Notes: generated by a model not told the origin, from the sequence alone. DNA of 64,000 nt from Micavibrio sp. UBA6145 (GCA_002423205.1 DIUZ01000002.1:129409-193408), one strand, 5' to 3'; positions 14,455 through 64,000 are shown, counted from the stretch's first letter. Program-made: numbers and translations.

Positions 14455-14460
14455 CACTAA

Positions 14461-14493: not shown

Positions 14494-14544
14494 CCCCCCT
14501 TTGTTCGTCCCGGAAAACGTCGTTATTTATAAGGAGCAGTAACA

Positions 14545-14952
14545 ATGAAAACAGCGAAAAACACGGCCTTCAGCATGGATAAGTTTGCTGGTGGCGGTAT
14601 GAAACAAGTCGAAGATATGATGTCGATTGGCAAAGAAACCACCGACGCGATGACCCAGTCCAGCAGCATTTTTGCCAAGGGCATGGAAGAAATGATGAAG
14701 GCGTGCATGTCTCACGCCCAGGCAGCCAGCGAAAAGAACGCCAATGTCTGGAAAACCCTGATGTCCTGCAAGACAATCAACGAATTTGCCGAAACCCAGA
14801 ACCGCATTGCTCAGGAATCGTTTGAAGACGCCATGTCGGCGACCGCTCAGATGTCCGAGAAGGCTGTCAAAATGATGATGGATTGTATGGAACCCATCAA
14901 CAAACAGGTTTCGAGCTCCATGAAAAAGGCCAACGTCACCGTTGCTGCCTAA
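14545..14952 (+). CDS. Phasin-family (PHA granule-associated) protein
   Basis: 135 aa, helical and Met/Lys/Ala/Glu-rich. It resembles alphaproteobacterial Phasin_2 proteins (KTINEFAETQNRIAQESFEDAMS). Confidence 0.55.
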   Translation: MKTAKNTAFSMDKFAGGGMKQVEDMMSIGKETTDAMTQSSSIFAKGMEEMMKACMSHAQAASEKNANVWKTLMSCKTINEFAETQNRIAQESFEDAMSATAQMSEKAVKMMMDCMEPINKQVSSSMKKANVTVAA

Positions 14953-14984
14953 GATAAACCACCGGTGATATGCCGGAAGGTATG

Positions 14985-15012
14985 AAAAAGCCCGCTTCTC
15001 GCGGGCTTTTTT
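14985..15012. terminator. Bidirectional intrinsic terminator between convergent genes
   Basis: AAAAA-GCCCGC-ttctc-GCGGGC-TTTTTT. Confidence 0.75.
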
Positions 15013-33505: not shown

Positions 33506-33589
33506 TGGTGCGGTCGAAAAGACTTGAACTTTCACGGGTTGCCCCACAGCCACCTCAAGGCTGCGCGTCTACCATTTCGCCACGACCGC
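33506..33589 (-). tRNA. tRNA-Leu (anticodon GAG)
   Basis: The minus strand reads GCGGTCG-TG-GCGAAATGGTAGACGC-G-CAGCC-TTGAGGT-GGCTG-long variable arm-GAAAG-TTCAAGT-CTTTT-CGACCGC-ACCA. It has a 7-bp acceptor stem, U33, purine 37 and an encoded CCA. Confidence 0.9.
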
Positions 33590-36647: not shown

Positions 36648-37340
36648 ATGAACTCATTGCAAGCAAACAAGATTCGTCTGGTCATGCACCTGCGCCGCCA
36701 CGGTATCACCGATACCAATGTGCTGGGTGCCATTGAACGCATTCCGCGTGAAGAATTCGTACCCGAACTGTTTTTCGACCAGGCCTATGAAGACCGCGCA
36801 TTGCCCATCGGTCTGGGCCAGACCATCTCACAACCGCTGGTCGTTGCGACCATGTCGCAGGCGCTTGAACTCAACGACCGTATGAAGGTGCTGGAAATCG
36901 GTACGGGTTCCGGCTATCAGGCCGCGATCCTCTCGAGGCTCTGCCGCCGCGTTTATTCCATCGAACGCCATCGTCCGCTGCTTGATATTGCTGAACAGCG
37001 TTTCAAAAACATGCAGCTGCGCAACGTCACCACCATGGTTGGCGACGGCATGAAGGGCTGGCCGGTTCAGGCACCGTTCGACCGTATCATTGTCACCGCC
37101 GGTGCCGCTGGTGAAGTGCCGCGCGATCTTTTGTTCCAGCTCGCCATTGGCGGCATCATGTGTATCCCGGTGGGGCCGGATGCAACGGCGCAGACGCTCG
37201 TGAAATATACACGCGTATCCGACACCGAATTCACCTGTCAGGAATTGATGCCGGTGCGTTTTGTCCCGCTTCTGCCCAACGTGGCAGAGGAATCCATGGA
37301 CATGGAACCTGACATCAACAAACTTCTGGCATGGGCATAA
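36648..37340 (+). CDS. pcm: Protein-L-isoaspartate O-methyltransferase
   Basis: QTISQP and VLEIGTGSGYQAA. Confidence 0.9.
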   Translation: MNSLQANKIRLVMHLRRHGITDTNVLGAIERIPREEFVPELFFDQAYEDRALPIGLGQTISQPLVVATMSQALELNDRMKVLEIGTGSGYQAAILSRLCRRVYSIERHRPLLDIAEQRFKNMQLRNVTTMVGDGMKGWPVQAPFDRIIVTAGAAGEVPRDLLFQLAIGGIMCIPVGPDATAQTLVKYTRVSDTEFTCQELMPVRFVPLLPNVAEESMDMEPDINKLLAWA

Positions 37341-38176
37341 AGCACGCGGCTTTGTTTGGTCTTTGTGTGGTGGTCACGGCATGTGGCACCGCAAAGCATC
37401 CTGCACCTGTCTACGACCTGAAAATGAACGGTAGTTCTGCGGGCTCCGCCATCGTAGGCGGGCGTGTTGTCAGCCTGGCACCGCCCTCTACCTATCGCGC
37501 CCGCCACGGCGACACCGCTTACAGTGTCGCCAACATGTTCGATTTGCGCGTCACCGATATCATCGCGCAGAACAACCTCCACGCGCCGTACCAGTTGCAT
37601 GACGGGCAGGTGATTAGCCTGTCGCGCCCGCAACAGGCCGCATTGCAATCATTTGAACCCGCGCCGCTGGCCGCCGTACCGCAGGACCAGGTGATGCGCG
37701 AAACATTGCAGCCGCCAATGCAGGTAGGGGGCAAACAAGAAACCCAGACCCCAACCACGGCACCGCGCCCCCCACGCACTGCCGCACCCGCCGCTGCCAG
37801 ACGCTTCGCCCGTCCGGTGCAGGGGGAGGTGGTGTCGGCCTACGGCTCCAAGGCCGACGGCCTGTATAACGAAGGCATCAATATCGCAGCCAAACCCGGC
37901 ACGCAGGTCCGCGCGGCGGATGCCGGCACGGTTGTCTATGCGGGCGACCGGTTATCGGGTTACGGCAATCTGGTTTTGATCAAACACGACAACGAATTTT
38001 TCACGGTCTATGGCCACATGGCCGATACCCGCGTGGCCAAGGGCGCAAGCGTCGCGCGCGGCCAGACCATCGGCACCGTCGGCACATCCGGCCAGGCCAA
38101 AACCCCGCAGCTTCATTTCGAGATCCGTCAGGGCACCAAGTCATTGGATCCGCAGGGATATTTAATGCCGGAATAA
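37331..38176 (+). CDS. LysM-domain M23-family peptidase lipoprotein (NlpD-like)
   Basis: Lipobox VVVTACG, a LysM-like segment (YRARHGDTAYSVANMF...GQVISL) and M23 motifs (YGNLVLIKH..TVYGH; PQLHFEIR). Confidence 0.85.
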   Translation: MGIKHAALFGLCVVVTACGTAKHPAPVYDLKMNGSSAGSAIVGGRVVSLAPPSTYRARHGDTAYSVANMFDLRVTDIIAQNNLHAPYQLHDGQVISLSRPQQAALQSFEPAPLAAVPQDQVMRETLQPPMQVGGKQETQTPTTAPRPPRTAAPAAARRFARPVQGEVVSAYGSKADGLYNEGINIAAKPGTQVRAADAGTVVYAGDRLSGYGNLVLIKHDNEFFTVYGHMADTRVAKGASVARGQTIGTVGTSGQAKTPQLHFEIRQGTKSLDPQGYLMPE

Positions 38177-40183: not shown

Positions 40184-41137
40184 ATGATCATAAAACTTCT
40201 TCCGCTTGTCCCGCATGACACGAAGATCAACTTCTTCGGTCACCGCTTTTACGCATTCATCGCATCCGTCATCATCATTGGCGGCTCGATCCTGTGCCTG
40301 TCGATCAAGGGTCTGAATTTCGGCATCGACTTCACCGGCGGTACGGTGATGGAAGTGGCCACGCCCATTGATCCCGATCTTGGCGCTTTGCGTAAATCCC
40401 TGGAAGAGCTGCATATCGGCGAAGTGCCGATCCAGGAACTGGGCTCCAAACGCTCGCTGCTGCTTCGCTTCCCTGAACAGGACGGCGGCGCAGAAGGGCA
40501 GGCAGCCGCCATCGCCAAAATCCGCACCACACTGGATGCAACCTTCGCCGGTGCCGGCGCACCGGTTGATTACCGCCGCACCGAATTCGTGGGGCCGCAG
40601 GTCGGTGAAGAACTCAAGAAAAACGGTCTTCTTGCCATCATCTTCGCGCTATTCGCGATCCAGTGTTACATCTGGGTGCGCTTCAACTGGCAGTACAGCG
40701 TGGGCGCCATGCTGGCCCTGATCCATGACGTTGTGGGCATCCTCGGCCTGTTCTCGCTTACGCAGATGCCGTTCGACCTCTCAACACTTTCGGCCATCTT
40801 GCTTGTTGCGGGTTATTCGATCAACGAAACGGTTATTATTTTCGACCGCGTTCGCGAAACCTTGCGCAAATTCCGCAAAATGCCGATGCAGGACGTGATC
40901 AACTATTCGATCAACTCGACCCTTGCCCGTACGATCATGACCTCCGGTTCGACGCTTCTGGCGCTTCTGGCGCTGTGGCTGTTCGGCGGCATGGTTATCC
41001 GCGGCTTCGTCTCAGCCCTGTTTATCGGGATCTTGATCGGCACGCACTCATCCTACTTCGTGTCGGCGCCGTCGCTGTATTACCTGAAACTGCGCCGTGC
41101 ACCGGAAGTCGCAACCGGGGAAGAAAAGGCGGCTTAA
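40184..41137 (+). CDS. secF: Protein translocase subunit SecF
   Basis: 317 aa with GIDFTGGT, following secD. Confidence 0.9.
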   Translation: MIIKLLPLVPHDTKINFFGHRFYAFIASVIIIGGSILCLSIKGLNFGIDFTGGTVMEVATPIDPDLGALRKSLEELHIGEVPIQELGSKRSLLLRFPEQDGGAEGQAAAIAKIRTTLDATFAGAGAPVDYRRTEFVGPQVGEELKKNGLLAIIFALFAIQCYIWVRFNWQYSVGAMLALIHDVVGILGLFSLTQMPFDLSTLSAILLVAGYSINETVIIFDRVRETLRKFRKMPMQDVINYSINSTLARTIMTSGSTLLALLALWLFGGMVIRGFVSALFIGILIGTHSSYFVSAPSLYYLKLRRAPEVATGEEKAA

Positions 41138-41982
41138 ACGCCTTTTTTCCAGCGCCGGTGAATCCACAGCCACTGGTCAGGATATTCGCGGATCCATGCC
41201 TCCAGAACGGCATGCGTATCCGCGATAATCTCTTCCGTCGGACGCTCACCGACGGGGATGGCTTCGCCGAGATCGATTTCAAAATGACAGCCTGATGTGC
41301 GGATAATGCGCCCCGGCACCAGCGGGCATTTCAGTTTACGCGCCAGTTCGACAAACGCCGTCGACGTCATGGCCGGACGATTGAAAAACATCGCCTCAAT
41401 GCCGGTGTTCATTTTCTGGTCGATCAGCATACCCACGCTTTCGCCGTTTTGCAGCGCCCGCAGGGTTTCGCTCAGGCCTTTGCGGTTCTTGCCGAATGAC
41501 CGCAATGCCCCGCCGAACCCGCGTAAGCGCACAATCAGCGCATCGACGGACGGGTTGTTTGGCGCGCGGTAAACGGAATGCATGGTGATCTGTTGCTGGA
41601 ACAGCATGGCGGGGGGCAGCACCTCCCAGTTGCCGATATGACCACTGAAAAAAACCGTAGTCTGACCGCGCAGCGGTGCAAAACGCTCCGGGTTGCGGAA
41701 TGTCGTACGGTTTTTGGCGATGTCTTCCAGATGGGGGTATTCACCGACCACGCGGCCCAGGTGATTCCACATACCACGCAGAATTTTATCGACTTCTGCG
41801 CGCGTCAGATGCGGGAAGGCGCGGGCGATGTTGTTGCGGCCCACTTTTGAAAGCCCCATCAATGGGCCGATCGCGCCGAAGATCGCGCCCGACGTGGCGG
41901 ACGCCGCTTGCGGACCCATGACCTTCAATAGGCCCAGATACCCGCGCAGAAGCGCGTATTCGATACGGTAACGTGTGCTCAT
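41134..41982 (-). CDS. Lipid A biosynthesis (Kdo2-lipid IVA) acyltransferase-family protein
   Basis: LpxL/HtrB-family pattern including FFSGHIGNWE. Last gene of the waaA-lpxK operon. Confidence 0.75.
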   Translation of the reverse strand: MSTRYRIEYALLRGYLGLLKVMGPQAASATSGAIFGAIGPLMGLSKVGRNNIARAFPHLTRAEVDKILRGMWNHLGRVVGEYPHLEDIAKNRTTFRNPERFAPLRGQTTVFFSGHIGNWEVLPPAMLFQQQITMHSVYRAPNNPSVDALIVRLRGFGGALRSFGKNRKGLSETLRALQNGESVGMLIDQKMNTGIEAMFFNRPAMTSTAFVELARKLKCPLVPGRIIRTSGCHFEIDLGEAIPVGERPTEEIIADTHAVLEAWIREYPDQWLWIHRRWKKGV

Positions 41983-42923
41983 GCGCGCCTCAGCACGGCC
42001 ACAAGCGCATCCATGTTCTCAATCCGCACATCAACCGGCAATGCCTCAATCGCGGCCCCTTGGGGCAGGCGGACATGGTCTTTTTCAGTGGTGATCAGTT
42101 TTGCGTTGTGACGCGCAGCCAGTGACGCAAGGCCGTCCATGTCATCCTGTGTATAGGCATGGTGATCAGGAAACGGCACAGTTTCAGCCAGCGTGTAACC
42201 GGATGACACCAGCGTATCAAAAAACTTCTGCGGGCGGCCGATGCCGGCAAAGGCGACATATGGGCCTGTACCCTTCGCATGTGTCTCAAACTGCGCGTGG
42301 AATACCGGCATGGTACCAAGACGCGCGCTTAACTGTGTGACATCGTCACCGACAATGACCGCCGCATGTGCGCGGCCCAGCGCATCGTTCAGTTTTTCGC
42401 GCAAAGGCCCCGCCGGGATGCATGCGCCGTTACCGGCACCAACACCGCCGTCAAACACCAGAACGCTGGCGGTCTTGGTAAAGCCGGGATTCTGAAATCC
42501 GTCATCGGCAATGACCAGGTCGAAGCCTTCTTTTTCAGCAAGACGCAGGCCCGCTGCGCGGTCAGGCGACACAATAACCGGCGCGACACGCGACAACAGA
42601 ACGGCTTCATCGCCATGCATGCGTGCGTCGGCCGAAGTGACCAGAACTGCGCCGCGCGTATCGCTGCGGTAACCACGTGTCAGGAAACAGGGTCGGGAGG
42701 CACCCAATGCACGGCACAGGGCGATGGCGGTTGGTGTCTTGCCGGTCCCGCCGATCATGACATTGCCCACGCAGATCACGGGAATGGACGATGTATAAGG
42801 TTTTGCCAGCTTACGGCGTACGCACGCTGCCGCCAGCCACAACCATGACAATGGCTTAAGCAGCGTGGATGTCAGGCTGGATCCGGGTTGATACCAGAAA
42901 GCCGGTGGTACAAGCGCAATCAT
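41979..42923 (-). CDS. lpxK: Tetraacyldisaccharide 4'-kinase
   Basis: VICVGNVMIGGTGKTP P-loop. Confidence 0.9.
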   Translation of the reverse strand: MIALVPPAFWYQPGSSLTSTLLKPLSWLWLAAACVRRKLAKPYTSSIPVICVGNVMIGGTGKTPTAIALCRALGASRPCFLTRGYRSDTRGAVLVTSADARMHGDEAVLLSRVAPVIVSPDRAAGLRLAEKEGFDLVIADDGFQNPGFTKTASVLVFDGGVGAGNGACIPAGPLREKLNDALGRAHAAVIVGDDVTQLSARLGTMPVFHAQFETHAKGTGPYVAFAGIGRPQKFFDTLVSSGYTLAETVPFPDHHAYTQDDMDGLASLAARHNAKLITTEKDHVRLPQGAAIEALPVDVRIENMDALVAVLRRA

Positions 42924-44203
42924 GCCGCAATTCCAGCACGATCCAGCACCGGGCGCAAATGGCCCGCAACCGTGTCCAGAACACCGTTCTGCGCCTCTAC
43001 AAAACCCTTGGCGGCGGCACCCAGTGCTGCAACCTTGTCAGGCGTGCTCAAAAGATCGTCCAGCGTGCGGCCAAGCTCGGCCTCACGGTGGGCCATGATG
43101 GCCGCCGCCGCCAGGCGCAGGTCATGGTCGATCTGCGCGAAATTCCACATATTAGGTCCGTATACGACAGCACAGCCCAGCTGCGCGGCCTCAATCGGGT
43201 TATGCCCGCCGCCCGGTGAATTGATCAGTGAATTCCCGATATAAGCAATCGGCGCTAAACGGAAGAACACACCCGGTTCACCCATCGTGTCGGCAATGTA
43301 GATATGCGTATCCGGCGTGATCGGCTGTTGCAGCGAACGCCGCGCGACGATCAAGCCGTCCAGCTTCGATGCTATTGTCTCCCCGCGCGTGGCATGGCGC
43401 GGCATGATGATGAACAAAAGGCCGGGATGCCTGATGACAAGGTCCTTGTAAAGACGTGCTGCCATTTCCTCTTCGCCGTCATGGGTGCTGGCAAACAACA
43501 CAACCGGGCGTGCACCAATGCTTTCGCGCAAAGCGGCAAGGGCGGCGTCGTCATATGGAAGCGGGGGACGGGAGAATTTCATGTTACCGGCAATCACGAC
43601 ATTCTGCGCGCCAATGCTGGCCAGGCGCTTGGCGTCGCCGTCGCTTTGCGCCAGAACGGCGTCGAACAGCCCCATGACGTGATGTGCGCCCTGCGGTTCA
43701 TGCGTGGACCAGCGCGTGGCACTGCGCACCGACATACGGCCATTGACCATCATCAGCGGGATATTCCGTGCCTTGATGGCTTCCAGCGTAATCGGCCACA
43801 ATTCCGATTCCAGCCACAGGACGGCTGCGGGTTTCCAGTGGTTTAAAAACGCATCGACCCAGCCCGGGCAATCGAAGGGTGCGTATTGATGCAGGATGCG
43901 TGGATCTTTCAGTTGACGCACCAGACGGGCGGCGGTGACCGTGACGGTGGTGATAAGGCAGGTCAGGGCAGGGTTGCGGTCCAGCAGGTGGCGCACCAGC
44001 GGCAGGACCGACTGCATCTCGCCGACGGACGCCGCGTGGACCCACAGGATCGGCCCGGCAGGGCGCGCGATGGTGGCCTTGCCCTCACGCTCGCTTTTAT
44101 GCGCGGTCTCTTCCAGACCCTTCCATGTGCGGTACGCGATCAGAAGCCGCACCAGCGGCGCGACATAGGGCATGATACGGCGGTAAAGCGACAGAAACAT
44201 CAC
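42920..44203 (-). CDS. waaA: 3-deoxy-D-manno-octulosonic acid transferase
   Basis: WVHAASVGE and overall KdtA pattern. Confidence 0.9.
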   Translation of the reverse strand: MMFLSLYRRIMPYVAPLVRLLIAYRTWKGLEETAHKSEREGKATIARPAGPILWVHAASVGEMQSVLPLVRHLLDRNPALTCLITTVTVTAARLVRQLKDPRILHQYAPFDCPGWVDAFLNHWKPAAVLWLESELWPITLEAIKARNIPLMMVNGRMSVRSATRWSTHEPQGAHHVMGLFDAVLAQSDGDAKRLASIGAQNVVIAGNMKFSRPPLPYDDAALAALRESIGARPVVLFASTHDGEEEMAARLYKDLVIRHPGLLFIIMPRHATRGETIASKLDGLIVARRSLQQPITPDTHIYIADTMGEPGVFFRLAPIAYIGNSLINSPGGGHNPIEAAQLGCAVVYGPNMWNFAQIDHDLRLAAAAIMAHREAELGRTLDDLLSTPDKVAALGAAAKGFVEAQNGVLDTVAGHLRPVLDRAGIAA

Positions 44204-44260
44204 GCCTATAAAAGCGTTAAACGACGGATTGTAAAGGATTATATGGGCGCTTATGCGCCT

Positions 44261-44767
44261 TTATGGCCCGTCATAACGCCCGGTCACGGCGTTGAAACGA
44301 TGGGCCGGTGCGTTACCCGTACCCTGCACGTAAAAGGCGGGTTCACGCCCACCCGGCGCCGCCGTGACGGCATTGGCAATCGTGTCTTCCACAACCTGCC
44401 AGCCCTGGCTTTGCGTCTTGTCCTTTTTAAGGACAAGTGTGGCGCAGCCCATCGTGCCGCAGGTGTTGAGACCCGAAAAACGCACCAGCATCACGCTGTC
44501 GCGGTCCAGACCCTTGGCATTGAAATACCGGGCCGACACAACAACATTGGGATCGTTGTAATAATCACGAAGATCGTTTTGAAGAACACTCCGGGCAATG
44601 GCCACCGCTTGCGGGTCGCTGTTGCTTTCCTGCGGCATGATGTCGACAAGGGACCCATTGGCACGCGCCAGATGGCCGCCGTTCAGACTCATGCATGCGC
44701 TGAGAAACACCGCGCTTGTCGCGGCTGCAGAAATACCAAGACGTCTCAGGAAGCCGGGCGCGTTCAC
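44261..44767 (-). CDS. Small exported (lipo)protein, module component B' (CGTMGC motif)
   Basis: 168 aa with lipobox FLSAC. Paralog of 45996-46496. Its start overlaps the upstream stop by 4 nt. Confidence 0.6.
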   Translation of the reverse strand: MNAPGFLRRLGISAAATSAVFLSACMSLNGGHLARANGSLVDIMPQESNSDPQAVAIARSVLQNDLRDYYNDPNVVVSARYFNAKGLDRDSVMLVRFSGLNTCGTMGCATLVLKKDKTQSQGWQVVEDTIANAVTAAPGGREPAFYVQGTGNAPAHRFNAVTGRYDGP

Positions 44768-45999
44768 TGGCTTCCCATGCTGCTTGGAAGCGGGATCGAC
44801 TGGTTCAGCGTCTGCAACGATTTCATGTTGCCCGCTTCATACAGCGTTGAACGCAGCGCATTGCCCGCGCAGTTGTTAGGGATCAGGTCGTTGAGTGAGC
44901 CCGTGATATTGCCGATATTCGGAAGTTTGATCGGGCTTTCGCACTGCACGTATTTGAGCAGCATGTCGACCATCAGGCCGCACATCTCGCTTGAGAACGC
45001 ACTGCCAAGACCAAGCGAGCCGAGCAGGCTGCCAAGCGCGTTGGTGGCCATGGATTGGAAGTCGAGCATGCCTTTGATGGATGCCGCCGCCGAGTTGATG
45101 GAGTCGAATTCCGACTTGAACAGTTTCTGCATGATGCCGCCAATCGGTCCGCCAGCGGACAGGATGTTGCCGGTGATCTGCTGGGCGTAACGCGTCGGCG
45201 CATACGAGAACTGGTTCGAAATACGCTCAAGCTCTTTCGAAACGCACGGGCTGTTCGACACTTGTGACAGGGCCGGGGGTGGGGTGTAGTTCGTTCTGAT
45301 GTAATCCTGCACCTTGGCGACAGATGCATCGAGCTGCGCCGTCACTGCGGACTGGATCTCGGGATCGCAGACCTGCTGATAGCCATTGCGGCCCGCGTTG
45401 GGGGACGTTGATGATTGTCCGCATAATCCTCCGCCTGAACCGGCGTTCGTATCATAACCTGCAAATTTATTCATGTACTGGGCCAGGCTGGTATGGCCGT
45501 CATTGGGATTATAGGCGCCGTTGGTTCTCAGCATCCGTAAGGTACCGCCGGCACCGCCAAGGTGCGACGCGCCCAAAAGGCCGGACCACGTAACGGTCAC
45601 GCCGTTGATGGTCTGGCCGATATACTGGCCTGCGCCACCGGCAACCAGCGTGCGGTAATTGGCATCAGTGAAGCGGCGAATGGCTTCTTCCTGCTGTTGC
45701 GGACTGTTGATGAAGGATGTGCGGTTATAACCAAGGCCGCTCAGCGTACTGGGGCAGAACTGGTATTTGCCGCAGCAACCGATGGTATTGCATGCGCAGC
45801 CTGAACCGGGGGGGCCGTTACAGTCGCGACCGCCGTAATTGCCGTTGTTTTCACTGCGGCCCAGCGAGTCGTAATAGCCCTGCATCGAACAATTCTGCTG
45901 CGCCTGCGCCGTGTTGGGCAAAATCCAGCTGCCCAGCATGATGCCAAGCAGAAGCGACAGGGACAGGATGGTATAAAACGGCCCGCGCGTTTTTCTCAT
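44764..45999 (-). CDS. Secreted protein, module component A' (Cys-rich lysozyme-like N-terminal extension plus shared C-terminal domain)
   Basis: 411 aa with a signal peptide. The N-terminal region contains GKYQFCPST. The C-terminal region of about 230 aa is colinear with 46500-47258. Confidence 0.6.
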   Translation of the reverse strand: MRKTRGPFYTILSLSLLLGIMLGSWILPNTAQAQQNCSMQGYYDSLGRSENNGNYGGRDCNGPPGSGCACNTIGCCGKYQFCPSTLSGLGYNRTSFINSPQQQEEAIRRFTDANYRTLVAGGAGQYIGQTINGVTVTWSGLLGASHLGGAGGTLRMLRTNGAYNPNDGHTSLAQYMNKFAGYDTNAGSGGGLCGQSSTSPNAGRNGYQQVCDPEIQSAVTAQLDASVAKVQDYIRTNYTPPPALSQVSNSPCVSKELERISNQFSYAPTRYAQQITGNILSAGGPIGGIMQKLFKSEFDSINSAAASIKGMLDFQSMATNALGSLLGSLGLGSAFSSEMCGLMVDMLLKYVQCESPIKLPNIGNITGSLNDLIPNNCAGNALRSTLYEAGNMKSLQTLNQSIPLPSSMGSQ

Positions 46000-46496
46000 T
46001 TCTCGTACCGTTCCGTCGCGGCGTTGAACCGGCGGTAAGGCGCATTGCCCGTGCCCTTGGTATAAAAGGCGGGCTGGCGTTGCAGCAGCGCATCGGACGT
46101 CACGATGGAATTGACAAGCGTGTTATCCATGACATGCCATTGATTGTTTTTACCGCGCTTGAGCAGGGTCGTGGCGCATCCCATGGTGCCGCAAGTGGAT
46201 TCACTGACAAAGGTCACGATCAGGACACTGTCTTTCTCAAGGCCCTTGGCATTGAAAAATTTGGCGCTGACCGGTGTCTTCCCGTCGTTGTAGTAATTTT
46301 TGATGTCTTCTGCCAAAACCTGCAGCGCGATGGCCGTGGCCGCGGCGTCGGTATTCGTGGGCCGGGGCATGATCTCGGTCCAGTCGCTTTTCTTGGTGTC
46401 GGTCTTTGCTGCGGACGTTGCCATCGCGATGGATGACGCCATCATCACGCCGCCAAGCGCCAGACACATAGCCAGGTTTTTAAAGCTGCGCTTCAT
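45996..46496 (-). CDS. Small exported protein, module component B (CGTMGC motif)
   Basis: 166 aa with a signal peptide. Paralog of 44261-44767. Confidence 0.6.
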   Translation of the reverse strand: MKRSFKNLAMCLALGGVMMASSIAMATSAAKTDTKKSDWTEIMPRPTNTDAAATAIALQVLAEDIKNYYNDGKTPVSAKFFNAKGLEKDSVLIVTFVSESTCGTMGCATTLLKRGKNNQWHVMDNTLVNSIVTSDALLQRQPAFYTKGTGNAPYRRFNAATERYEK

Positions 46497-46499
46497 ATC

Positions 46500-47258
46500 T
46501 TACCTCGCCAGCTGCAGAATTTCAGGCATCCCGATATTGACGGTATTGCCGGTGGGCAGCGTGACAGACTGGTTATAATTTTTCAGCGCGCTGGTGTTAC
46601 CGGCGGCATACAGGCCGGAACGAAGGGCGTTACCCGCGCAGTTGTTTGGGATCAGGTTGTTGAGGTTGCCGAACAGGTTGCCAAGGCTGGGCAGGTTGAT
46701 CGGTTTTTCGCACTGAATGTATTTGAGCATCATATCGACCATCAGGCCGCACAGCTCGGACGAGAACGCATCGCCAAGACCGAGTGAGCCCAGCAGGCTG
46801 CCCATGACATCGGATGCCATGCCCTGGAAGTCCAGCATCCCGGCAATGGATGACGCGGCCGAGTTGATGGAGTCGATCTCCGATTTGAAGAGTTTCTGCA
46901 TAATACCCGACACCGGGCCGGCGGCAGAGAGAAGGCCGCCCGTCAGCTGTTGCGAGTAACGCGACGGGGCGTAAGAAAACTGGTTGGAGATACGGCCCAG
47001 TTCCTTGGACAGGCAGGGACTGTTGGAAACCTGTGACAGGGCGGCGGGCGGGGTGTAGTTTTGACGTTGGAAATTGGTCACGCCGTCCGTCGAAGCGTTG
47101 AGCTGATCGGACACACCTTGCGAAATTTCCTGGTCGCAAATCGGGTTTGAGCCCCCGGTCTGTGTCGCATGCGCGGCGAAGGCAAACGCCTGTCCTGCGA
47201 CAAAACATGCCATTAACAATATGAATTTAAAGGAAAAACTGCGCTTGAAGCTCAGCAT
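46500..47258 (-). CDS. Secreted protein, module component A
   Basis: 252 aa with signal peptide (...GQAFAFAAHA). Paralog of the C-terminal part of 44764-45999. Confidence 0.6.
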   Translation of the reverse strand: MLSFKRSFSFKFILLMACFVAGQAFAFAAHATQTGGSNPICDQEISQGVSDQLNASTDGVTNFQRQNYTPPAALSQVSNSPCLSKELGRISNQFSYAPSRYSQQLTGGLLSAAGPVSGIMQKLFKSEIDSINSAASSIAGMLDFQGMASDVMGSLLGSLGLGDAFSSELCGLMVDMMLKYIQCEKPINLPSLGNLFGNLNNLIPNNCAGNALRSGLYAAGNTSALKNYNQSVTLPTGNTVNIGMPEILQLAR

Positions 47259-47353
47259 GTTTTTTATATCCCTTTACCCCGCTGTACGATCATTATACTG
47301 AAAAAACACCAATTTTTACAAATCCCAAATTCAGGTTACGCCCAGAGAAAGAA

Positions 47354-48076
47354 ATGATCCTTAATTCAGACACTGATTTTGTCGATCTGGTCGTCCTCGC
47401 AGGGGGCGCTGCGACACGTCTTGGCGCTCTCAGCCAGGGCATACCCAAGCCTCTTTTGCCGGTGCGCGGGGTGCCGTTCCTGGCCTACCCGATCAGCCGC
47501 TTGGCCAAGACAGTCCGCCTGGGGCGCATCATCCCGGTTGTCAGAAAAGGCACTGCCGATCAATTCAGAGATAACTTAAGCATTCTGCCATATCCAATAA
47601 GAATTATTGAAGAAAATGATGCCATGGGTACTGGTGGGGCCATTCTGTCTGCGCGGGACGGCGCAGGGCTTTCTGACCCGTTTCTTGTCATGAATGGTGA
47701 TGTCCTGTTCCGTATGGACGGTCAGGCGCTGGTCGCCGCCGCCCGCACGCACGGCGCGGCCATTACCGCCATTCATGTCCCGGACGCCGGGCGTTTTGGG
47801 GCGCTGGAGGTCAAAGGCGGCATGGTAGGTACGTTCAGGGAGAAAGACGCAAACGCCGGCGCGGGCCTGATTAATGCGGGTCTTTATGCCTTCACCGCCG
47901 AATCGCTAAAGAGGTTTGAGACCCGTTCATGTTCGTTTGAGCGCGATATCGCGCCTGTGCTGGCCGCGGGTGGTCGACTGGCCGCCATAGAGGCCACAGG
48001 CCCGTTTCTGGATATCGGAACGCCCGAAACACTTGTCTCCGCCGAAGCCTTCGTGCGTGCAGCTGCATCATTTTAA
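47354..48076 (+). CDS. Sugar-phosphate nucleotidyltransferase
   Basis: VVLAGGAATRLGALSQGIPKPLLPV signature of the NTP_transferase family. Confidence 0.75.
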   Translation: MILNSDTDFVDLVVLAGGAATRLGALSQGIPKPLLPVRGVPFLAYPISRLAKTVRLGRIIPVVRKGTADQFRDNLSILPYPIRIIEENDAMGTGGAILSARDGAGLSDPFLVMNGDVLFRMDGQALVAAARTHGAAITAIHVPDAGRFGALEVKGGMVGTFREKDANAGAGLINAGLYAFTAESLKRFETRSCSFERDIAPVLAAGGRLAAIEATGPFLDIGTPETLVSAEAFVRAAASF

Positions 48077-57909: not shown

Positions 57910-58024
57910 CGATACAGTTCCGATTTCTGACCACACCTATCAGACTAAAAATACAAACAACCGCCCCCTTCACTGGCAGCGGTTGTTTTTTTGTTATCGG
58001 CATTGGAATCAATCACTTATCCAT

Positions 58025-58194
58025 CCTCTCGCATTGTGATATTGGACGGTGATCGCAGCATTACTTTCGATGCTCTGGAATGGCTATCAGCACAGGGCGT
58101 GGCTTTGGTTCAAATCAATTGGCAGGGTAGGCCAGCCCCCTATTCTTATATGCGGGGTGTGGCCGCTAAATTCGAAGCGGACTTGGGTTGCTGA
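58025..58194 (+). pseudogene. cas1 relic (about 35 well-conserved codons, then a diverged tail)
   Basis: Translation SRIVILDGDRSITFDALEWLSAQGVALVQINWQG matches residues of the intact Cas1 (SRIVILDGDGSITFDALQWLSAQGVALVQINWQG). By hand alignment, 95 of 104 nt are identical to the reverse complement of 63026-63129. Confidence 0.75.
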
Positions 58195-59042
58195 TGTCCG
58201 CAAAGTTCGATTTTCCGGAGCGATTCTTCCATCATTTTCGGAGGCAATATGTGCGTATGCCATTCTATAAAGCGATCGTAAAGATCGGTTGGCAACGCGT
58301 CTTTAAGAGTGTCGTGGTGCTTTTCAAAGTTAAGTGCAAAAGACTTGAGCTTCTTTTCGGTAAGGGGGCTGGAAGAAAGGCTTTCGTCATTCCCAACGTT
58401 ATAAGTTGTCAGAGCTCTGTCGATATTGATGGCACGTATATCTTGTCTATTGAAAACCCTCATAAGATAATCTCCATCTTCCGCAACAGACATACGCTCA
58501 TCGAAACCACCGACTTTACCGCTAAAAATATCTTTGGAAAAAAGCCATGTGCCTGGTTGCGCGCCCGTGTTTTTACACAGGCCGAGAATCGTCAAGCTGT
58601 TTCCATTGTCATGGACCTGCTTGTCGCCCGTTTTTTGATCAACGATTTCATGATTGGTCGTGCAAAAAATACTATCCTGCTTTGGGTATTTTGAGATTTC
58701 CGCGACCTGCGCTGCAATCTTTTCGGGATGCCATGTATCGTCGCCATCAAGCAGAGCGATAAAATCCCCCGAACACGCGCACATGCCCGTATTTCTTGCC
58801 GCGCTTACGCCACGATTTTCCTGGCAAATAATCTTAAAACGATTATGTTCTTCCAAAGATAAGGTTGCTCTGTACGATTCTAAAAGTTCTCGCGTTCCGT
58901 CTTTAGAACCGTCGATGACGATAATCGTTTCCAAATTTTTATAAGTTTGGTTAGCCACAGTATGAACCGCATTCATAATATGTCGTTCACCGTTATAAGT
59001 AGGAATAACGACGCTTATCAATGGATCGATCATGTCGCTCAT
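58146..59042 (-). CDS. Family 2 glycosyltransferase
   Basis: ISVVIPTYNGERHI, VIDGSKDGT and LLDGDDTWHP (DxD). Confidence 0.85.
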   Translation of the reverse strand: MSDMIDPLISVVIPTYNGERHIMNAVHTVANQTYKNLETIIVIDGSKDGTRELLESYRATLSLEEHNRFKIICQENRGVSAARNTGMCACSGDFIALLDGDDTWHPEKIAAQVAEISKYPKQDSIFCTTNHEIVDQKTGDKQVHDNGNSLTILGLCKNTGAQPGTWLFSKDIFSGKVGGFDERMSVAEDGDYLMRVFNRQDIRAINIDRALTTYNVGNDESLSSSPLTEKKLKSFALNFEKHHDTLKDALPTDLYDRFIEWHTHILPPKMMEESLRKIELCGHQQPKSASNLAATPRI

Positions 59043-59540
59043 GAGTTTTATACTAAAGAAATAGATTTCATAATATAGAACAATGGTTAAAACTTTGTTT
59101 AATTATTAATCTGGGAATTTTGCGATCGGGTTTTAGTAATGGATTCAAAGCAGTTACGGGTTTGAAGTCGGAGGTTTGCTCGTTCGAGTGCCGCCTAACG
59201 CGGCTTTATTGAACTTCATCGACATCTTCTTCGCTTTCGGCGTTGCCGGTGAATAGAGCGGGGCTTTGTGCCTTAGCGGTATTGTCGTTCTTATCGCAGC
59301 GACTTTCACCGCCGTGCGTTGTCGGCCATGCGGCTCCGTCACCAAAACCGGAAACAGAACAGGCCGCATAGCCCTGTTGTTAATCCCTGATTGAATTAGA
59401 GCGGCATTTCAATTCCACAAAGATGCGCTAATTTACATGCGGTATGCTTTATGTGCCTCTTTTCATACAGCAATCCAGCCTATCGGATGATGTTTACATA
59501 ATTTTTACTTATTTCCGATATATTCGCGTAGGACAAAAAA

Positions 59541-60350
59541 ATGGCCCTTAGAGAAAAACCGGCAGCCTTGATGATTGACGTTCAACTTGGCTGTATTGCC
59601 TTGATGGAGCGTGAGGATGCCAAAGCCTATTTGGACCATCTGGGTAAGACTCTGAGCGATATGCGTGGCAGCAGTATTCCGGTCCACTGGGTAACGATGA
59701 GCACCCGCAATCAACTATACGAGGCACAAAGCAACAGTACTGATGTCCGGTCTCGCACCCATCTGGATGCAATGGATTTTTATCAAGGCGACAAAAACGG
59801 ACCACAAGCCGAAGACATCAAGAACTTTGATATTTTCAACGATTTCATGTTTGGAAATAAAGAAAAAGGCATTCCCGCATCCGGACCCCGTATGAACGAG
59901 GCAATATTTTGTAAGGATGCATTCGGCACATTCAATACGTCGCATGATGAAAGTGGCAACCCAGGCACGATGACCGAATTTTTAAGCACACGTAAAGAAA
60001 AACATGGTGAAAGCCATTTACTGCTTATGGGCACGACCACGCAGGTATGCTGCTTAAAGACCGCTACCGGAGCCAAAGAAAAAGGATTTGATGCGACTGC
60101 ATTAACGGATTGCGTTGCCGGGTGGACGGGTAACGACTACAAAAGCCTGACATGGCGCGAAGGCGGTGTAACACCAGATTGGCACAAAAATGAGATGATT
60201 TCCGGCGTAAGAAATGAGCGCATGGGCTTCAACGCGGCGGATAGGTCTACTATTTCCCAAGTGAAGTTTGGCAATGCTGCGGATTTCATCACGCGGAACA
60301 ATCTCCTTCCCACTGCGCAAAACGATTTCCAACAAAAATCTAAGCCCTGA
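59541..60350 (+). CDS. Isochorismatase-family (cysteine hydrolase) protein
   Basis: ALMIDVQ (Asp), FCKDAFGTF (Lys) and LMGTTTQVCCLKTA (Cys), with atypical long insertions. Confidence 0.6.
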   Translation: MALREKPAALMIDVQLGCIALMEREDAKAYLDHLGKTLSDMRGSSIPVHWVTMSTRNQLYEAQSNSTDVRSRTHLDAMDFYQGDKNGPQAEDIKNFDIFNDFMFGNKEKGIPASGPRMNEAIFCKDAFGTFNTSHDESGNPGTMTEFLSTRKEKHGESHLLLMGTTTQVCCLKTATGAKEKGFDATALTDCVAGWTGNDYKSLTWREGGVTPDWHKNEMISGVRNERMGFNAADRSTISQVKFGNAADFITRNNLLPTAQNDFQQKSKP

Positions 60351-60378
60351 TTTATTCCGATAATTGAAGCTTCTGAGG

Positions 60379-60876
60379 TCAGGTCCAAACCCGTACATAG
60401 GCCGTGAAGGAACTGTGCAGCGCGATAATGGATCTGGTGGCGGTGGCGGCTCCTAAGTCCCTGCCCTGATATACGAGAAGCCCGGGTCTAACGCCCGGAG
60501 GTATAGAGATAGGTGTCCGTATTTTTTGAGTGTCAATGTAAGTAAAAAAATCGGAAAAATGATTATGCCATTCAGACTGATCTTCTGAGATAAAAGCTCT
60601 AACAGCTTTAGAACCCATGTCATCTATTTCGCCAAACAGTTTTCTCTCAATTTCGTCGTTAATAAATGATCCGAAAAAAGTTGCGTAAAGATCAGTTTGA
60701 TAAAAACATTGGGAGGTATTCCAGAATTTTAGGCTGTTTAGAGCTTTGAAATCTCCGTTTGGAAGCGAAATTTTATCCGGGGCCAAATCGAGGTAGCAGA
60801 GCTTATCCGTAGGATTGAATAGGAACCCCTTCTGATACCACTGTGGAACATAATGATTAGCGCGCGTTGTGGACAT
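60379..60876 (-). pseudogene. Truncated DUF4238-family gene
   Basis: The N-terminus NHYVPQWYQKGF matches the DUF4238 signature. Protein-like sequence ends near residue 120, where repeat copy 2 (60478-60513) begins. Family members are usually much longer. Confidence 0.5.
60478..60513 (+). repeat. Hairpin plus GGTATAGAGATAGG repeat, copy 2
   Basis: aagcCCGGGtctaacgCCCGGaggtatagagatagg. Same orientation as copy 1, with a different stem sequence that still pairs. Confidence 0.6.
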
Positions 60877-60958
60877 TTAAGATGCCTTAAATCTGTCAAT
60901 TACGCTGCCAGCGTATAACTCTCTTGACCATAATCCAATAAAATCATAGCGTTACTCG

Positions 60959-61161
60959 AAATCCCCATATGGGGATTTTCGGGGCTTAATAACCCCGTGT
61001 TAGACGGTCGGCGTGTCCGAAATCACGCCGCTTCTCGTGCCTTACGGCCGGGAGGCGGCGGCGTATGTCCAAAGCCTCGGCTTAAAGGCCGTCGCGGTCG
61101 TTCTAACACGGCTTATTAACTCCCGGTCACCAGAGAGGACATCTCTGGTGACTTTGTTTTT
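60959..61161 (+). ncRNA. Highly structured leader RNA or sRNA of about 200 nt ending in a strong intrinsic terminator
   Basis: Putative promoter TTGACC (60924-60929), N17, TAGCGT (60947-60952). 5' palindromic hairpin AAATCCCCAT/ATGGGGATTT (60959-60978). Nested long-range helices: GTGTTAGA 60997-61004 with TCTAACAC 61102-61109, extended by TTAATAA/TTATTAA and CGGTCG/CGGTCG-type pairs. Inner ACGGCC..GAGGC / GCCTC..GGCCGT rod. Terminator GTCACCAGAGA-ggaca-TCTCTGGTGAC-TTTGTTTTT (61126-61161). Confidence 0.45.
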
Positions 61162-61187
61162 ATCTAAACAAGGGAAAGGGACTGAAT

Positions 61188-61640
61188 ATGAAACGAATAG
61201 GAAAATATCTTATAGTTTGCGCCGTCATGGGTTTGGCAGCTTGCGCTTCTCCGGCGGCGCAAATGTCACCGCAGCAAATTTCTTCTTTATCCAATCAGCA
61301 GCTATGCGATCTCCAGAATAATTATCTGTGGGATCAGAACACAGAAATTGAAATTGGACGCAGAAATCTAAATTGCGATCCGATTTACAATGAATGTCTT
61401 TTGAGGGGCATGAAACCGGATGGTCCGGAAATGGCTTTATGCATGAATCAAATTCGTGAAACTCAGGCATTACAAGCAAAAGTCGCTCAACAGCAAAGAG
61501 AGTTAGAAACTGAACGCACCCTCAATGAAATGAGAGCAGGAAACCAGCAACAGCAAAATCAAGTAATTGTAGTTCAGCCTGGTTCACAGCGAAAAGCTAA
61601 CACTTCACCATTTTGCCCTACTTTCCCTTACTGTAACTAA
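61188..61640 (+). CDS. Lipoprotein with a Gln-rich coiled-coil-like C-terminal half
   Basis: Lipobox GLAACAS. RBS AAGGGAAAGGG upstream. 150 aa. Confidence 0.6.
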   Translation: MKRIGKYLIVCAVMGLAACASPAAQMSPQQISSLSNQQLCDLQNNYLWDQNTEIEIGRRNLNCDPIYNECLLRGMKPDGPEMALCMNQIRETQALQAKVAQQQRELETERTLNEMRAGNQQQQNQVIVVQPGSQRKANTSPFCPTFPYCN

Positions 61641-61981
61641 ACAGAGGCGGGGAAACCTGCCTCTGTTTTTTTAAGGTCTGTCAAATATGCGTGTGCACGT
61701 ATTAATATATTCTCGTTACTTCTGCGATCTGTAAGAATTTTGGCCATATTTGAAGCATCCATGTCCAGTGCTGCGGCAAGGGCGCGGATGGAAATATTTT
61801 TCTCTTTCATTTTGTCGCGGATTTTATCGAGTGTTGATTTTTGTTCCGCACTTTTGATTTCAAGAATTTTTATGGCGCGGTGAATTTTCATCAGCGTTTT
61901 ATTGGACGGATTAGCTCGACCTTTTGAAATCTTCAATACGTAGCGTTCCGATAAATTCGCGAGTTCTGCCAAGTTCGGCAT
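61637..61981 (-). CDS. Small helix-turn-helix protein downstream of cas1
   Basis: Start trimmed to MPNLAELANLSERYVLKISKGRANPS... It has two XRE-like HTH-type segments; the second is ISIRALAAALDMDASNMAKIL. Confidence 0.5.
   Translation of the reverse strand: MPNLAELANLSERYVLKISKGRANPSNKTLMKIHRAIKILEIKSAEQKSTLDKIRDKMKEKNISIRALAAALDMDASNMAKILTDRRSNENILIRAHAYLTDLKKTEAGFPASV
61641..61672. terminator. Intrinsic terminator between convergent genes
   Basis: ACAGAGGC-ggggaaacct-GCCTCTGT-TTTTTT. Confidence 0.7.
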
Positions 61982-62206
61982 ATTTCTGCAGAATTTCAGA
62001 GGGTGTAAATTTAAATAAAGCCGCATTAAGGGTTTTCCCCTTTTTCCAAAAATTCAGTAATTCTTGCGGGGAGTGGTTATTATCCAAGAATTGCCTCTGG
62101 CATAAATTCAATATATTCAGGCCCAATTTTATGGGGGCTCACCGAAATATAAAGGAAATTATTAAGGCCGTATTTTGAAATAATTCAATTAATTAGGCCA
62201 AATTAG

Positions 62207-63394
62207 CTAAATCGAATTATTTACAATGCTCAATTCTGGTGAATTTTGGCTGTTTACAGCCTTTTTGGATATATTGCCGCCAAATAGCTTTTTCAAATTA
62301 GCGGCAGTTATAGTCTCTATTTCAGGCATATCTTGAACCAATTTCACAATGACGCGGGCAAATTGAGGATGAAGGCGGCATATTCCGTTTTTATTCAAAA
62401 TAAAATCATCCGGCGAAAACGTATGCTTAATAACAAAATCCAGTACTTTCTGATCCATGACCGGGCGTACGGGCTCCATAAGGTCAAATACCAATGAAGG
62501 GCGGTTATTACCGCTGGAGTGCATGTAGCTAATTGTAGGATCAATCCCCATAGCCAATATCTGCCCCCGTACTTGATTTTCTAATACGGCATAGACGTAA
62601 TTTAAAATGGCATTGACCGGGTGCAGGGCAAACTGGTTACTATCGTTAGAGCCAATCCTTGTTCCTACGCGTAACCATTCTTGTGGAACTGGTTTCCGGC
62701 CAAGGCCTTTCCACTTTAAAGATAGCGTGTACCAGTATCGGAAATAGGCTGCCGCCGCGATTCCTTCGACAGCCAAAAGTGAATTTAAATTGACGGGTGG
62801 ATTTTTCTTTAAGGCCAAAATTTGAGCCTCTATTTTCTGCAATATCAATTCACCTTCAGGAGAATTGTCTGAAATACGTTTTATAGTTTCATGGCAATTT
62901 TCTATTTTTTTGAGAATAAGCCATTTTGAAAATTCAAAACCTTCACCGTTGTCTCGAATTTCTAACTGCCTTTTCACTAAGTCTGGGTTAGCGGCATAAT
63001 CTGCTTGTCCAATACTGGCCAGATGACCCTGCCAATTGATTTGAACCAAAGCGACACCCTGTGCTGATAGCCATTGCAAGGCATCAAAAGTGATACTGCC
63101 ATCACCGTCCAATATCACAATGCGAGAGGGTAATTGGCGGTCTCGCGGGAAAAAGCGGTGTTCTTCCCGCTCTTGCGGATAATGAGTGAACCCACATTTT
63201 ATCAATAATGTGCCGCGATCTATATTCAGCCGGATACCATGGCCGCTCAATACAAGCGGCTTGTGCAATATGCGGCGTTTCCGGGCTTTGTACTGGGGAA
63301 CGGGGTTTAATTTTTTCTGCCAATATTCGCCACGTTCCGCCCATGCGTTATCATTGTCATTCTGGCTGGTGGTGTTCGTAAGAGGCAAATTCAT
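62207..63394 (-). CDS. cas1: Cas1-family integrase/endonuclease, stand-alone in this window
   Basis: 395 aa. N-terminal beta-domain pattern (VLSGHGIRLNIDRGTLLI...RIVILDGDGSITFDALQWLSAQGVALVQINWQG). Catalytic helical domain with LLAVEGIAAAAYF (Glu), NAILNYVYAVL, GIDPTISYMHSSG (His) and LVFDLMEPVRPVMD (Asp/Glu). Confidence 0.85.
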   Translation of the reverse strand: MNLPLTNTTSQNDNDNAWAERGEYWQKKLNPVPQYKARKRRILHKPLVLSGHGIRLNIDRGTLLIKCGFTHYPQEREEHRFFPRDRQLPSRIVILDGDGSITFDALQWLSAQGVALVQINWQGHLASIGQADYAANPDLVKRQLEIRDNGEGFEFSKWLILKKIENCHETIKRISDNSPEGELILQKIEAQILALKKNPPVNLNSLLAVEGIAAAAYFRYWYTLSLKWKGLGRKPVPQEWLRVGTRIGSNDSNQFALHPVNAILNYVYAVLENQVRGQILAMGIDPTISYMHSSGNNRPSLVFDLMEPVRPVMDQKVLDFVIKHTFSPDDFILNKNGICRLHPQFARVIVKLVQDMPEIETITAANLKKLFGGNISKKAVNSQNSPELSIVNNSI

Positions 63395-63607
63395 AGCAGT
63401 AAATTAGCAATTTTAGCCGTCATTCGCCATAGCTAAGCTATTGATTTCAGTGTAGAAAGTGAAAAAACTGCGACTAGGTTTCAAAAACTAGAAGCAACTC
63501 CCAAGTACTAATGAACGTAGGCCAAAAGGATAAAACAGAATTATTGCTTTTATTTTACATAACTTTAATGTATCTTCTGCCTTAACTAATAACGATTGGA
63601 GAAAATC

Positions 63608-64000
63608 ATGTCTATTGTGGAAGCACGTGTATTTACAGACAGCAGTGATGTCGCGCTATCAAATGCAAAATATAATAAATTCGACGAGAAATATCTTCAT
63701 AGCAAAAGCGTTGAGCATTTATCTCTTCTAAAAGAGAAACTAGGTTCCGATATTAAAATAGAACTAGGTTTGGCATTTATGTTCACCACCCTGGGCGTAA
63801 CATCACTAGGATATGCAGTTGGAGCACCAACAATGTTGCAAAGCACCCCGCAACTAGGCTTGGCAGTACAGGCTGTAACAAGCGCTATGGCGGTGGGATC
63901 GGCATACTTTCTGGCCAGAACATTTTTTGCAGCCGTAAATAATGATACGAACCGCGACGATGTTAAAAAAATCTTAACGAAAAAAGCAGTGAACCCCACT
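63608..64000 (+). CDS. Hypothetical membrane protein (partial; runs off the window end)
   Basis: Hand translation from the ATG at 63608 (RBS GGAG 7 nt upstream): MSIVEARVFTDSSDVALSNAKYNKFDEKYLHSKSVEHLSLLKEKLGSDIKIELGLAFMFTTLGVTSLGYAVGAPTMLQSTPQLGLAVQAVTSAMAVGSAYFLARTFFAAV... There is no stop before 64000. It has two hydrophobic segments and is AT-rich. It is not in the ORF track. Confidence 0.5.
   Translation, partial: MSIVEARVFTDSSDVALSNAKYNKFDEKYLHSKSVEHLSLLKEKLGSDIKIELGLAFMFTTLGVTSLGYAVGAPTMLQSTPQLGLAVQAVTSAMAVGSAYFLARTFFAAVNNDTNRDDVKKILTKKAVNPT

Follow-up and report, generated by a model that had tools for sequence, protein, structure and literature searches.

That a cell wall hydrolase can be paired with a cognate periplasmic protector, and that polymorphic heads can be mounted on a constant module, is already known. 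In the X-Tfe/X-Tfi systems, variable N-terminal heads (M23 and SLT included) are carried by a conserved C-terminal domain, the XVIPCD, proteins consisting only of the XVIPCD exist, and the X-Tfi immunity genes are usually located upstream, co-transcribed, and encode periplasmic proteins or lipoproteins (PMC6536674, PMC10933484). Hydrolase pairs of type VI secretion systems (T6SS), of the Tse1-Tsi1 type, and Bdellovibrio combine a wall hydrolase with a periplasmic protector that is specific to it and comes from a neighboring gene, and the self-protection protein of Bdellovibrio is an ankyrin protein (PMC4686830). Among the known inhibitors, Tsi1 and PliI insert a loop into the active site (PMC10933484), and Ivy, with its CKPHDC motif, inhibits lytic transglycosylases (LTs) (PMC3660660). 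Here, we analyze an array of four genes (A, B, A′, and B′; 44261 to 47258) in a 64,000-nt stretch of DNA from Micavibrio sp. UBA6145 (GCA_002423205.1 DIUZ01000002.1:129409-193408), hereafter the window, whose numbering is used throughout unless a locus of another genome is named. Tentatively, we read the array as encoding polymorphic wall hydrolases that are exported by Sec and have cognate periplasmic inhibitors encoded upstream; the hydrolases would target the wall of another bacterium. New here are the families, the putative Sec-dependent route, a headless member that is always present, and a fixed locus beside waaA.

Lysins of the lysostaphin and zoocin A type begin with a catalytic domain, of M23 or lysozyme-like type, which a linker joins to a noncatalytic module at the C-terminus; these C-terminal modules are wall-binding domains such as SH3b, and immunity is by wall modification. 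A′ shares the order catalytic domain, linker, and C-terminal module, but here the module is a Cys-rich, predicted helical domain that also occurs alone, and a paired periplasmic protein is encoded. The four consecutive open reading frames (ORFs) are all on the minus strand, in the transcription order A, B, A′, and B′. A (46500 to 47258; 252 amino acids, aa) has a signal peptide at about residues 1 to 31 and the C-domain at residues 38 to 252, with Cys41, 82, 170, 183, and 207. B (45996 to 46496; 166 aa) is of subtype B1 (see below) and predicted to be Sec-exported. A′ (44764 to 45999; 411 aa) comprises a signal peptide (1 to 33), an LT/lysozyme-like head (36 to 185), a Gly/Ser linker (186 to 207), and the C-domain (208 to 411), while B′ (44261 to 44767; 168 aa) is a B1-type lipoprotein with no headed gene downstream. 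An earlier note on this stretch had proposed these genes with their coordinates and junctions and a distance of 57 nt between B′ and waaA, all of which were confirmed; direct reading of the sequence gave a 3-nt gap between A and B and 4-nt overlaps between B and A′ (ATGA) and between A′ and B′ (GTGA). Each N-terminus, read by eye, has a basic n-region and a hydrophobic h-region that look like a Sec signal, and B′ has the lipobox LSAC (44693 to 44704, within FLSAC, Cys25), in line with the signal peptides and lipobox noted before.

None of the four proteins had a match in Pfam (E up to 1), NCBIfam, or PADLOC, and no significant PDB sequence match was obtained, either with A′ alone or with profiles built for the head, the C-domain, and the B family, which bears out the view that the families were unrecognized. 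A PHROGs scan of the four proteins produced a single weak match, to an endolysin family, in the A′ head (5e-5). A word-indexed search of 5.8 billion proteins gave only 14 clusters of A′ relatives and next to none for B, whose relatives were taken instead from the neighborhoods of related loci. All the named relatives are annotated as "hypothetical protein" and come from metagenome-assembled genomes (MAGs) of uncultured Alphaproteobacteria or Rhodospirillales, one carrier MAG being labeled "uncultured Micavibrio sp." The sources are inconsistent here, since the NCBI taxonomy places the genus Micavibrio under Bdellovibrionota, as opposed to the Alphaproteobacteria and Rhodospirillales labels of the MAGs carrying the array. 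Three unannotated families can now be defined: the C-domain (ca. 40 clusters at 50% identity in an exhaustive HMMER search), the LT-like head (ca. 2,900 representative clusters in a search of the same kind, mostly proteins of 170 to 230 aa, also in phages), and the B1/B2 proteins.

The alignment of A with residues 206 to 406 of A′ is gap-free over 201 aa, with 70% of the positions identical (E=7e-93). The colinearity and the mostly identical residues described previously were therefore recovered, although the common part amounts to ca. 200 aa and not to ca. 230. The C-domain of A′ (44767 to 45378, minus strand) has its cysteines at positions 211, 252, 340, 353, and 377, and across 26 diverse C-domains the five cysteines were the only invariant columns. 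Mature A has 5 Cys and mature A′ has 13, an odd number in both. The domain occurs in three settings: headless (as in A), with an LT-like head (A′ and P0002-6), or with a Peptidase_M23 head (clusters P0024, P0026, P0029, and P0035, matching PF01551 with 43 to 61 bits for a cut-off of 28.7 and E values of 4e-11 to 1e-16). The M23 zinc ligands HxxxD and HxH are present in L016, L020, P0026, and the tail of L006 (numbers with L denote loci of other genomes or assemblies). Heads swap between LT-like, M23, and none on one constant C-domain, as expected for the swappable enzymatic head that had been suggested from A′. Both head types are found within one array in L016 and L020, and in the latter, C-domains that are 84% identical lie beneath the unrelated M23 and LT heads. 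Mean C-domain identity was 64% within and 37% between genomes, and the nearest neighbor came from the same genome for 16 of 19 entries, figures that are slightly noisy as one of the 19 (the L005 copy) is out of frame. Because C-domains are more alike within than between genomes, the pattern points to gene conversion, or to co-adaptation of the domains to a shared partner or to each other. A further arrangement was seen in the distantly related L016 (7769 to 9347). Here the order is a B2 gene, a gene for a protein of 183 aa made up of M23 alone, and a gene for a headless protein of 315 aa, in which the C-domain comes with a long linker of Ala, Thr, and Ser; the two proteins look like a split form of the M23/C-domain fusion.

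These features resemble the X-Tfe/X-Tfi systems in the variable wall-degrading heads, the proteins made only of the C-domain (compare headless A), the several pairs per genome, and the upstream periplasmic partner. However, X-Tfes have no signal peptide and are recruited by VirD4 in the cytoplasm via the XVIPCD, while the A-type proteins have a putative Sec signal peptide and a five-Cys C-domain that would fold outside the cytoplasm. We found no support for placing the C-domain among XVIPCDs: its profile (A5) compared with all PDB sequences, which should include the XVIPCD since a solved structure has been described (PMC8740702), gave only chance helical matches (E of at least 0.17), and no VirB/VirD4 genes of a type IV secretion system (T4SS) were present in the 20-kb neighborhoods of the loci. 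The C-domain is predicted to be all-helical from a low-confidence AlphaFold2 model built on 14 sequences, and fold searches with this model say nothing reliable about the domain. Matches to EsxB and to coronavirus spike were rejected as reflecting helical composition.

To compare arrays, we used loci from ca. 12 related genomes. Typically, an array opens with one headless A, after which come one to three units of B and a headed A, as in L004 and L023 (A, B, LT), L017 (A, B, M23), L001 (A, B, LT, B, LT), L020 (A, B, M23, B, LT), and L006 with L005 (A, B, M23 ... B, LT). L016 reads B, M23-only, A, B, LT, B, M23; L011, L012, L014, and L015 show a B and then a headed gene, and the window reads A, B, A′ (LT), B′. 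The B proteins fall into two subfamilies, and in all-against-all BLAST they cluster by the head encoded downstream: B1 precedes LT heads in 11 of 11 cases and B2 precedes M23 heads in 7 of 7, with no exception. The rule was framed on the first loci, and five later cases, forecast from it in advance, all fitted (the B of L017, both of L020, that of L023, and that of L006, in which the gene after B is truncated). The gene upstream of B is, by contrast, variable, being a headless A, an LT-headed gene, a DUF3126 gene, or an M48 peptidase gene for B1, and a headless A or an LT-headed gene for B2. As an aside, the small DUF3126 gene lies directly upstream of the array in the distant genomes L014 (1334 to 1552) and L016 (7042 to 7251), and none is found there in the window.

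Because the B subtype goes with the head encoded downstream in all 18 cases and is independent of the gene upstream, the functional unit is, judging from this comparison of sequences, B followed by a headed A′ and not A followed by B. The 4-nt overlap between B and the headed gene recurs in L011, L012, L015, L016, and L020. Headless A never has an upstream B of its own and is the first gene of the array except in the L016 layout. The opposite phasing, in which A followed by B is the unit, duplicated as A′-B′, and B would pair with the shared C-domain instead of the head, is suggested by the window taken alone, where each A-type gene tightly precedes a B-type gene (3 nt apart or overlapping by 4 nt). 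It is contradicted by the comparative data, given the variety of genes upstream of B, the 18 of 18 agreement with the downstream head, and the last headed gene before waaA, which usually has no following B (L001, L004, L005, L011, L012, L016, L017, L020, and L023), and we regard it as very improbable. Two copies of an A-B pair, as proposed in the earlier note, are thus borne out as to paralogy and tight junctions (B and B′ are indeed related, at 43% identity with E=1e-47), but the recurring unit is a B and a headed A′ after a single headless A, and the pairing of B′ with A′ has to be abandoned. Since no headed gene follows it in the window, B′ is by gene order an orphan partner; in L001 a third LT-headed gene stands between the equivalent of B′ and waaA, and this gene is missing in the window. 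Four metagenome copies of the locus (44150 to 47420) are identical to the window except for a 1-nt indel in L008, probably an assembly error, which cuts the B′ gene call to 140 aa. As all the strain copies recovered are identical, strain variation gives no handle on the selection acting on B′.

The head of A′ (45445 to 45894; residues ca. 36 to 185) is the additional Cys-rich N-terminal region that had been noted, with 7 Cys and the motifs GRSENNG, containing Glu50 (45841 to 45855), and GKYQFCPST (residues 77 to 85; 45745 to 45771). Its AlphaFold2 model reached a predicted local distance difference test (pLDDT) score of ca. 80 to 89 over residues ca. 40 to 180. Foldseek searches of BFVD retrieved phage SLT and peptidoglycan-binding proteins (E from 1.3e-6 to 5e-4, probability 1.00), and those of the PDB 46 matches, each of them weak and nearly all LTs or lysozymes, in a list led by Slt70, Cj0843, phi6 P5, phiKZ gp144, and RpfC, with MltD/E/F also present. 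In the family alignment (A6), Glu50, Gly77, Gln80, and His146 (A′ numbering) are invariant. The nearest solved relatives of the head profile by sequence are Rpf domains (E of ca. 0.1; RpfC, E=0.08), and the alignment puts Glu50 on the catalytic Glu of Rpf and also matches the G-x-Y-Q-F region. The model and these matches support a lysozyme/LT-like fold, in which the Glu is invariant and a G-x-Y-Q motif is present; this Glu, as the candidate catalytic residue, would correspond to the one that ends the first helix in the lysozyme-like superfamily. We therefore keep the lytic transglycosylase-like character that had been attributed to the head but not its specific assignment to MltB/SLT_2 (PF13406), for which no match was found at E up to 1, MltB/Slt35 being also absent among the 46 PDB matches. 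A′ had no match above the gathering thresholds of Pfam SLT (PF01464) and Transglycosylas (Rpf, PF06737), and head-only relatives stayed below them (16.6 bits for an SLT cut-off of 21.3, and 17.5 bits for a Transglycosylas/Rpf cut-off of 27); the head is best described as a lysozyme-like domain of an uncurated family. Going by their intact motifs, the wall enzymes look active, with Glu and G-x-Y-Q invariant in the LT heads and HxxxD and HxH in most M23 heads.

B1 and B2 are homologous (hhalign 96.6%, E=6e-10). B1 proteins have a tight C-x4-C hairpin, which reads CGTMGC in both copies of the window (B, Cys102 to Cys107, 46176 to 46193; B′, 44444 to 44461; both on the minus strand), while B2 proteins have a DxNGDGxxE motif, lacking in B and B′, and a looser Cys pair. 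In the alignment of B proteins (A2), Ala78 and the two Cys are the only invariant columns. The AlphaFold2 model of B (5 sequences, pLDDT 53) has one helix and an antiparallel sheet, with the Cys pair closing a hairpin loop between two strands that we propose as the inhibitory loop. An FG-GAP/beta-propeller assignment for B2 was rejected (14 to 18 bits for cut-offs of 22 to 27, covering the DxNGDGxxE motif only), and so was a c-type cytochrome: a cytochrome c3 match to "CGTAGCH" had E=0.19, but B1 has no His ligand, the residue after the second Cys being A, S, L, R, Y, E, or P and never His. A PDB sequence profile search showed no significant similarity of B to solved proteins, and membership in Ivy, PliI, or Tsi was not supported. 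Ivy, PliI, PliG, and MliC are inhibitors that are small and either Sec-exported or lipoproteins, features predicted for B as well, and the C-x4-C spacing of Ivy equals that of the B1 motif C-G-x-x-G-C. However, B had no Pfam match to Ivy (PF08816) at E up to 1, no Ivy structure was among the top 50 Foldseek matches and no Pli or MliC structure among the top ones, both with the low-confidence model of B, the loop sequence differs and is without His, and the genes of Ivy, Pli, and MliC stand alone and not in arrays with cognate enzymes.

Specific binding of B to the head could also serve another purpose. Adaptor or chaperone genes beside effector genes are common in T6SS and type III secretion systems (T3SS), and the B proteins might be head-specific chaperones, secretion adaptors, or activators, keeping the Cys-rich head export-competent or passing it to an export machine; the co-variation of B with the head and the translational coupling would suit any specific binder. 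We consider this improbable. Both partners would already be periplasmic, and it is unusual for a single small domain to have an ATP-independent folding helper in that compartment; the loop of B, which is conserved, exposed, and closed by a disulfide, is nearer to known loop-inserting inhibitors than to chaperones; and an orphan chaperone B′ would be left without a client.

What was found, a variable enzyme on a constant module with a co-varying adjacent partner, is the pattern of polymorphic effector/immunity systems, and the effector/immunity-like logic that the note had put forward remains the best fit given the head swapping and the B-head co-variation. Copy number and head set differ between related genomes, and by analogy this variation, together with an orphan B′, would be typical of effector/immunity arrays. 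In the mechanism that we favor, a single promoter upstream of A would drive A, B, A′, B′, and possibly waaA, and the four products would cross the inner membrane via Sec. A′, Cys-rich in both head and C-domain, would fold in the oxidizing periplasm. B, made just before A′ through the overlapping stop and start codons, would bind the lysozyme-like head, its disulfide-closed C-G-x-x-G-C hairpin probably entering the active-site groove, so that the producer's own wall is spared; because B proteins carry a signal peptide or a lipobox, they would be located where the peptidoglycan is. The common C-domain, which also stands alone as A, would mediate assembly with A, recognition for export across the outer membrane, or both. 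The export route may be type II secretion (T2SS), which accepts folded periplasmic proteins, and with such a Sec-then-T2SS route the wall of the producer would be exposed to a folded active hydrolase, and therefore an inhibitor would be needed. Once released, the enzyme would cut the wall of another bacterium, prey or competitor, and B′ would be an orphan inhibitor remaining after the loss of a third headed gene. Micavibrio aeruginosavorus is an epibiotic predator in which Sec and T2SS are present and T3SS and T4SS absent (PMC3189940). With the hydrolase pairs of T6SS and with Bdellovibrio the array would share the wall hydrolase and its adjacently encoded protector, but no T6SS genes are found here, the enzymes appear to be Sec-exported, the partner families are unrelated, and those systems have no shared C-terminal module.

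The array occupies the same place in most of the related genomes, between the NTP-transferase gene and waaA-lpxK-acyltransferase. The shared frame includes fabI, a 17-kDa antigen, PNPOx, Rsm22, asnC, and the NTP-transferase gene on one side and waaA, lpxK, and the acyltransferase on the other (this order is also found in L001, L005, L016, L017, L020, and L023), with secF-secD-yajC beyond, on the opposite strand. The array often but not always adjoins waaA, the B-A′ pair of L015 having no waaA beside it. In the window, the NTP_transferase gene (47354 to 48076, plus strand; Pfam 2e-24), which bounds the array on its upstream side in most genomes, is divergent from A, and the 95-nt intergenic region contains a promoter-like site (TTGTAA-18 nt-TATAAT, 47292 to 47321, minus strand) with 10 of 12 consensus positions; 3 such sites were found in the scanned region for 2.9 expected, and position is the sole argument for the one before A. 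On the other side, waaA (42920 to 44203; Glycos_transf_N of WaaA type, named after the matching genes of related loci), lpxK (41979 to 42923), and the lipid A acyltransferase gene (41134 to 41982; Lip_A_acyltrans, Pfam 8e-37 on the window protein) are on the minus strand and co-directional with the array, with no convincing terminator found between B′ and waaA. The GC content of the array is that of the surrounding genome. Judged on synteny and composition, the array is ancient, vertically inherited, and not mobile, and an origin by mobile elements or horizontal transfer was rejected on the typical GC and conserved synteny.

Several of these observations weigh against a weapon. A fixed site among housekeeping genes, vertical inheritance, genome-typical GC, and the lack of signs of mobility make up a profile that fits a core envelope function as well, and read-through from the array into the lipopolysaccharide (LPS) genes waaA-lpxK is probable. 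In addition, none of the loci encodes a secretion apparatus beside the array, the predatory lifestyle of the carrier MAGs is deduced from one taxon label, the 18 cases of co-variation lack phylogenetic independence, the fold matches of the low-confidence B model (NTF2-like and beta-propeller blades) are not significant, and HLD replaces HxH in the M23 head of L017. A head-only relative (P0042; LT-like head with a Pro-rich N-terminus; L025, 1341 to 4049) is found directly after PBP2-RodA (PBP, penicillin-binding protein), a housekeeping position. In L025 the next gene encodes a 181-aa lipoprotein with CGIYC that scored only 8 bits with the B profile, a likeness to B that is suggestive at best, the contig of L027 being too short to add to it.

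These data could instead be read as a housekeeping module of regulated autolysins, with A-type proteins remodeling the cell's own sacculus in division, elongation, or envelope insertion coordinated with LPS, and B proteins as periplasmic regulators. The fixed, inherited position, with flanks that stay syntenic while C-domain identity drops to ca. 21 to 30%, the GC content, the uninterrupted co-direction with the LPS genes, the retention of the array in small genomes (ca. 2 Mb), and the placement of P0042 and its weakly B-like neighbor all speak for such a module, for which Ivy would be a precedent as a periplasmic inhibitor controlling endogenous LTs (MltB) (PMC3660660). A fixed task would not, however, predict interchangeable LT and M23 heads, one to three headed copies, or an orphan inhibitor, and some genomes have LT heads only (the window and L023) or M23 only (L017). 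The adjacency to waaA, from which the note had drawn an alternative role in envelope assembly, is widely conserved but may be mere lineage synteny, the whole region being syntenic, and the pair of L015 lacks it. On balance we find housekeeping autolysis a somewhat unlikely, if serious, explanation of the array.

Some further features of the window were recorded. The stretch from 37331 to 38176 (plus strand) encodes a 281-aa lipoprotein with the LysM and M23 look of NlpD, a separate housekeeping-type M23 protein near the array; the equivalent position, beside pcm and close to yajC-secDF, is taken in L017 by a LysM/Peptidase_M23 gene and in L001 by an M48 peptidase gene. Of RNA genes, the window yielded a single one, a tRNA-Leu(GAG) (33506 to 33589, minus strand). 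Positions 58000 to 64000 form a low-GC island (39 to 45%, against ca. 57% elsewhere in the window) with genes for Cas1 (62207 to 63394, minus strand; Pfam Cas_Cas1, 5e-42), DUF4238, an isochorismatase-like protein, and a family-2 glycosyltransferase; no CRISPR array was visible between 57 and 64 kb, the window ending 600 nt past cas1. An AT-rich dip at 14200 to 15000 (46% GC) consists of an intergenic stretch and an ORF of 135 aa rich in Met, Lys, Ala, and Glu (14545 to 14952, plus strand), and is adjoined by an ORF (12488 to 14158, minus strand) with the look of a PBP5-like carboxypeptidase.

Going beyond the preferred reading of wall hydrolases with cognate inhibitors, the five-Cys C-domain might be a new Sec-dependent assembly or delivery module. 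A and its headed paralogs would join via their C-domains, possibly through the unpaired fifth Cys, into a surface or secreted wall-breaching complex with which Micavibrio-like epibiotic predators open the sacculus of the prey, B1 and B2 being two new families of self-protection inhibitors. We advance this as speculative and rather unlikely in its full form; if true, it would represent a previously unknown antibacterial delivery route needing no T4SS, T6SS, or contact-dependent inhibition (CDI) machinery. Should the housekeeping explanation hold instead, lineage-specific, inhibitor-gated autolysins linked to LPS core synthesis would also be new. For the breaching of the prey wall by epibiotic predators such as Micavibrio, the Micavibrio genome paper names only generic hydrolases and hemolysins (PMC3189940). 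The array is a concrete candidate, offering wall hydrolases of two chemistries on a common module together with what would be two new families of LT and M23 inhibitors.

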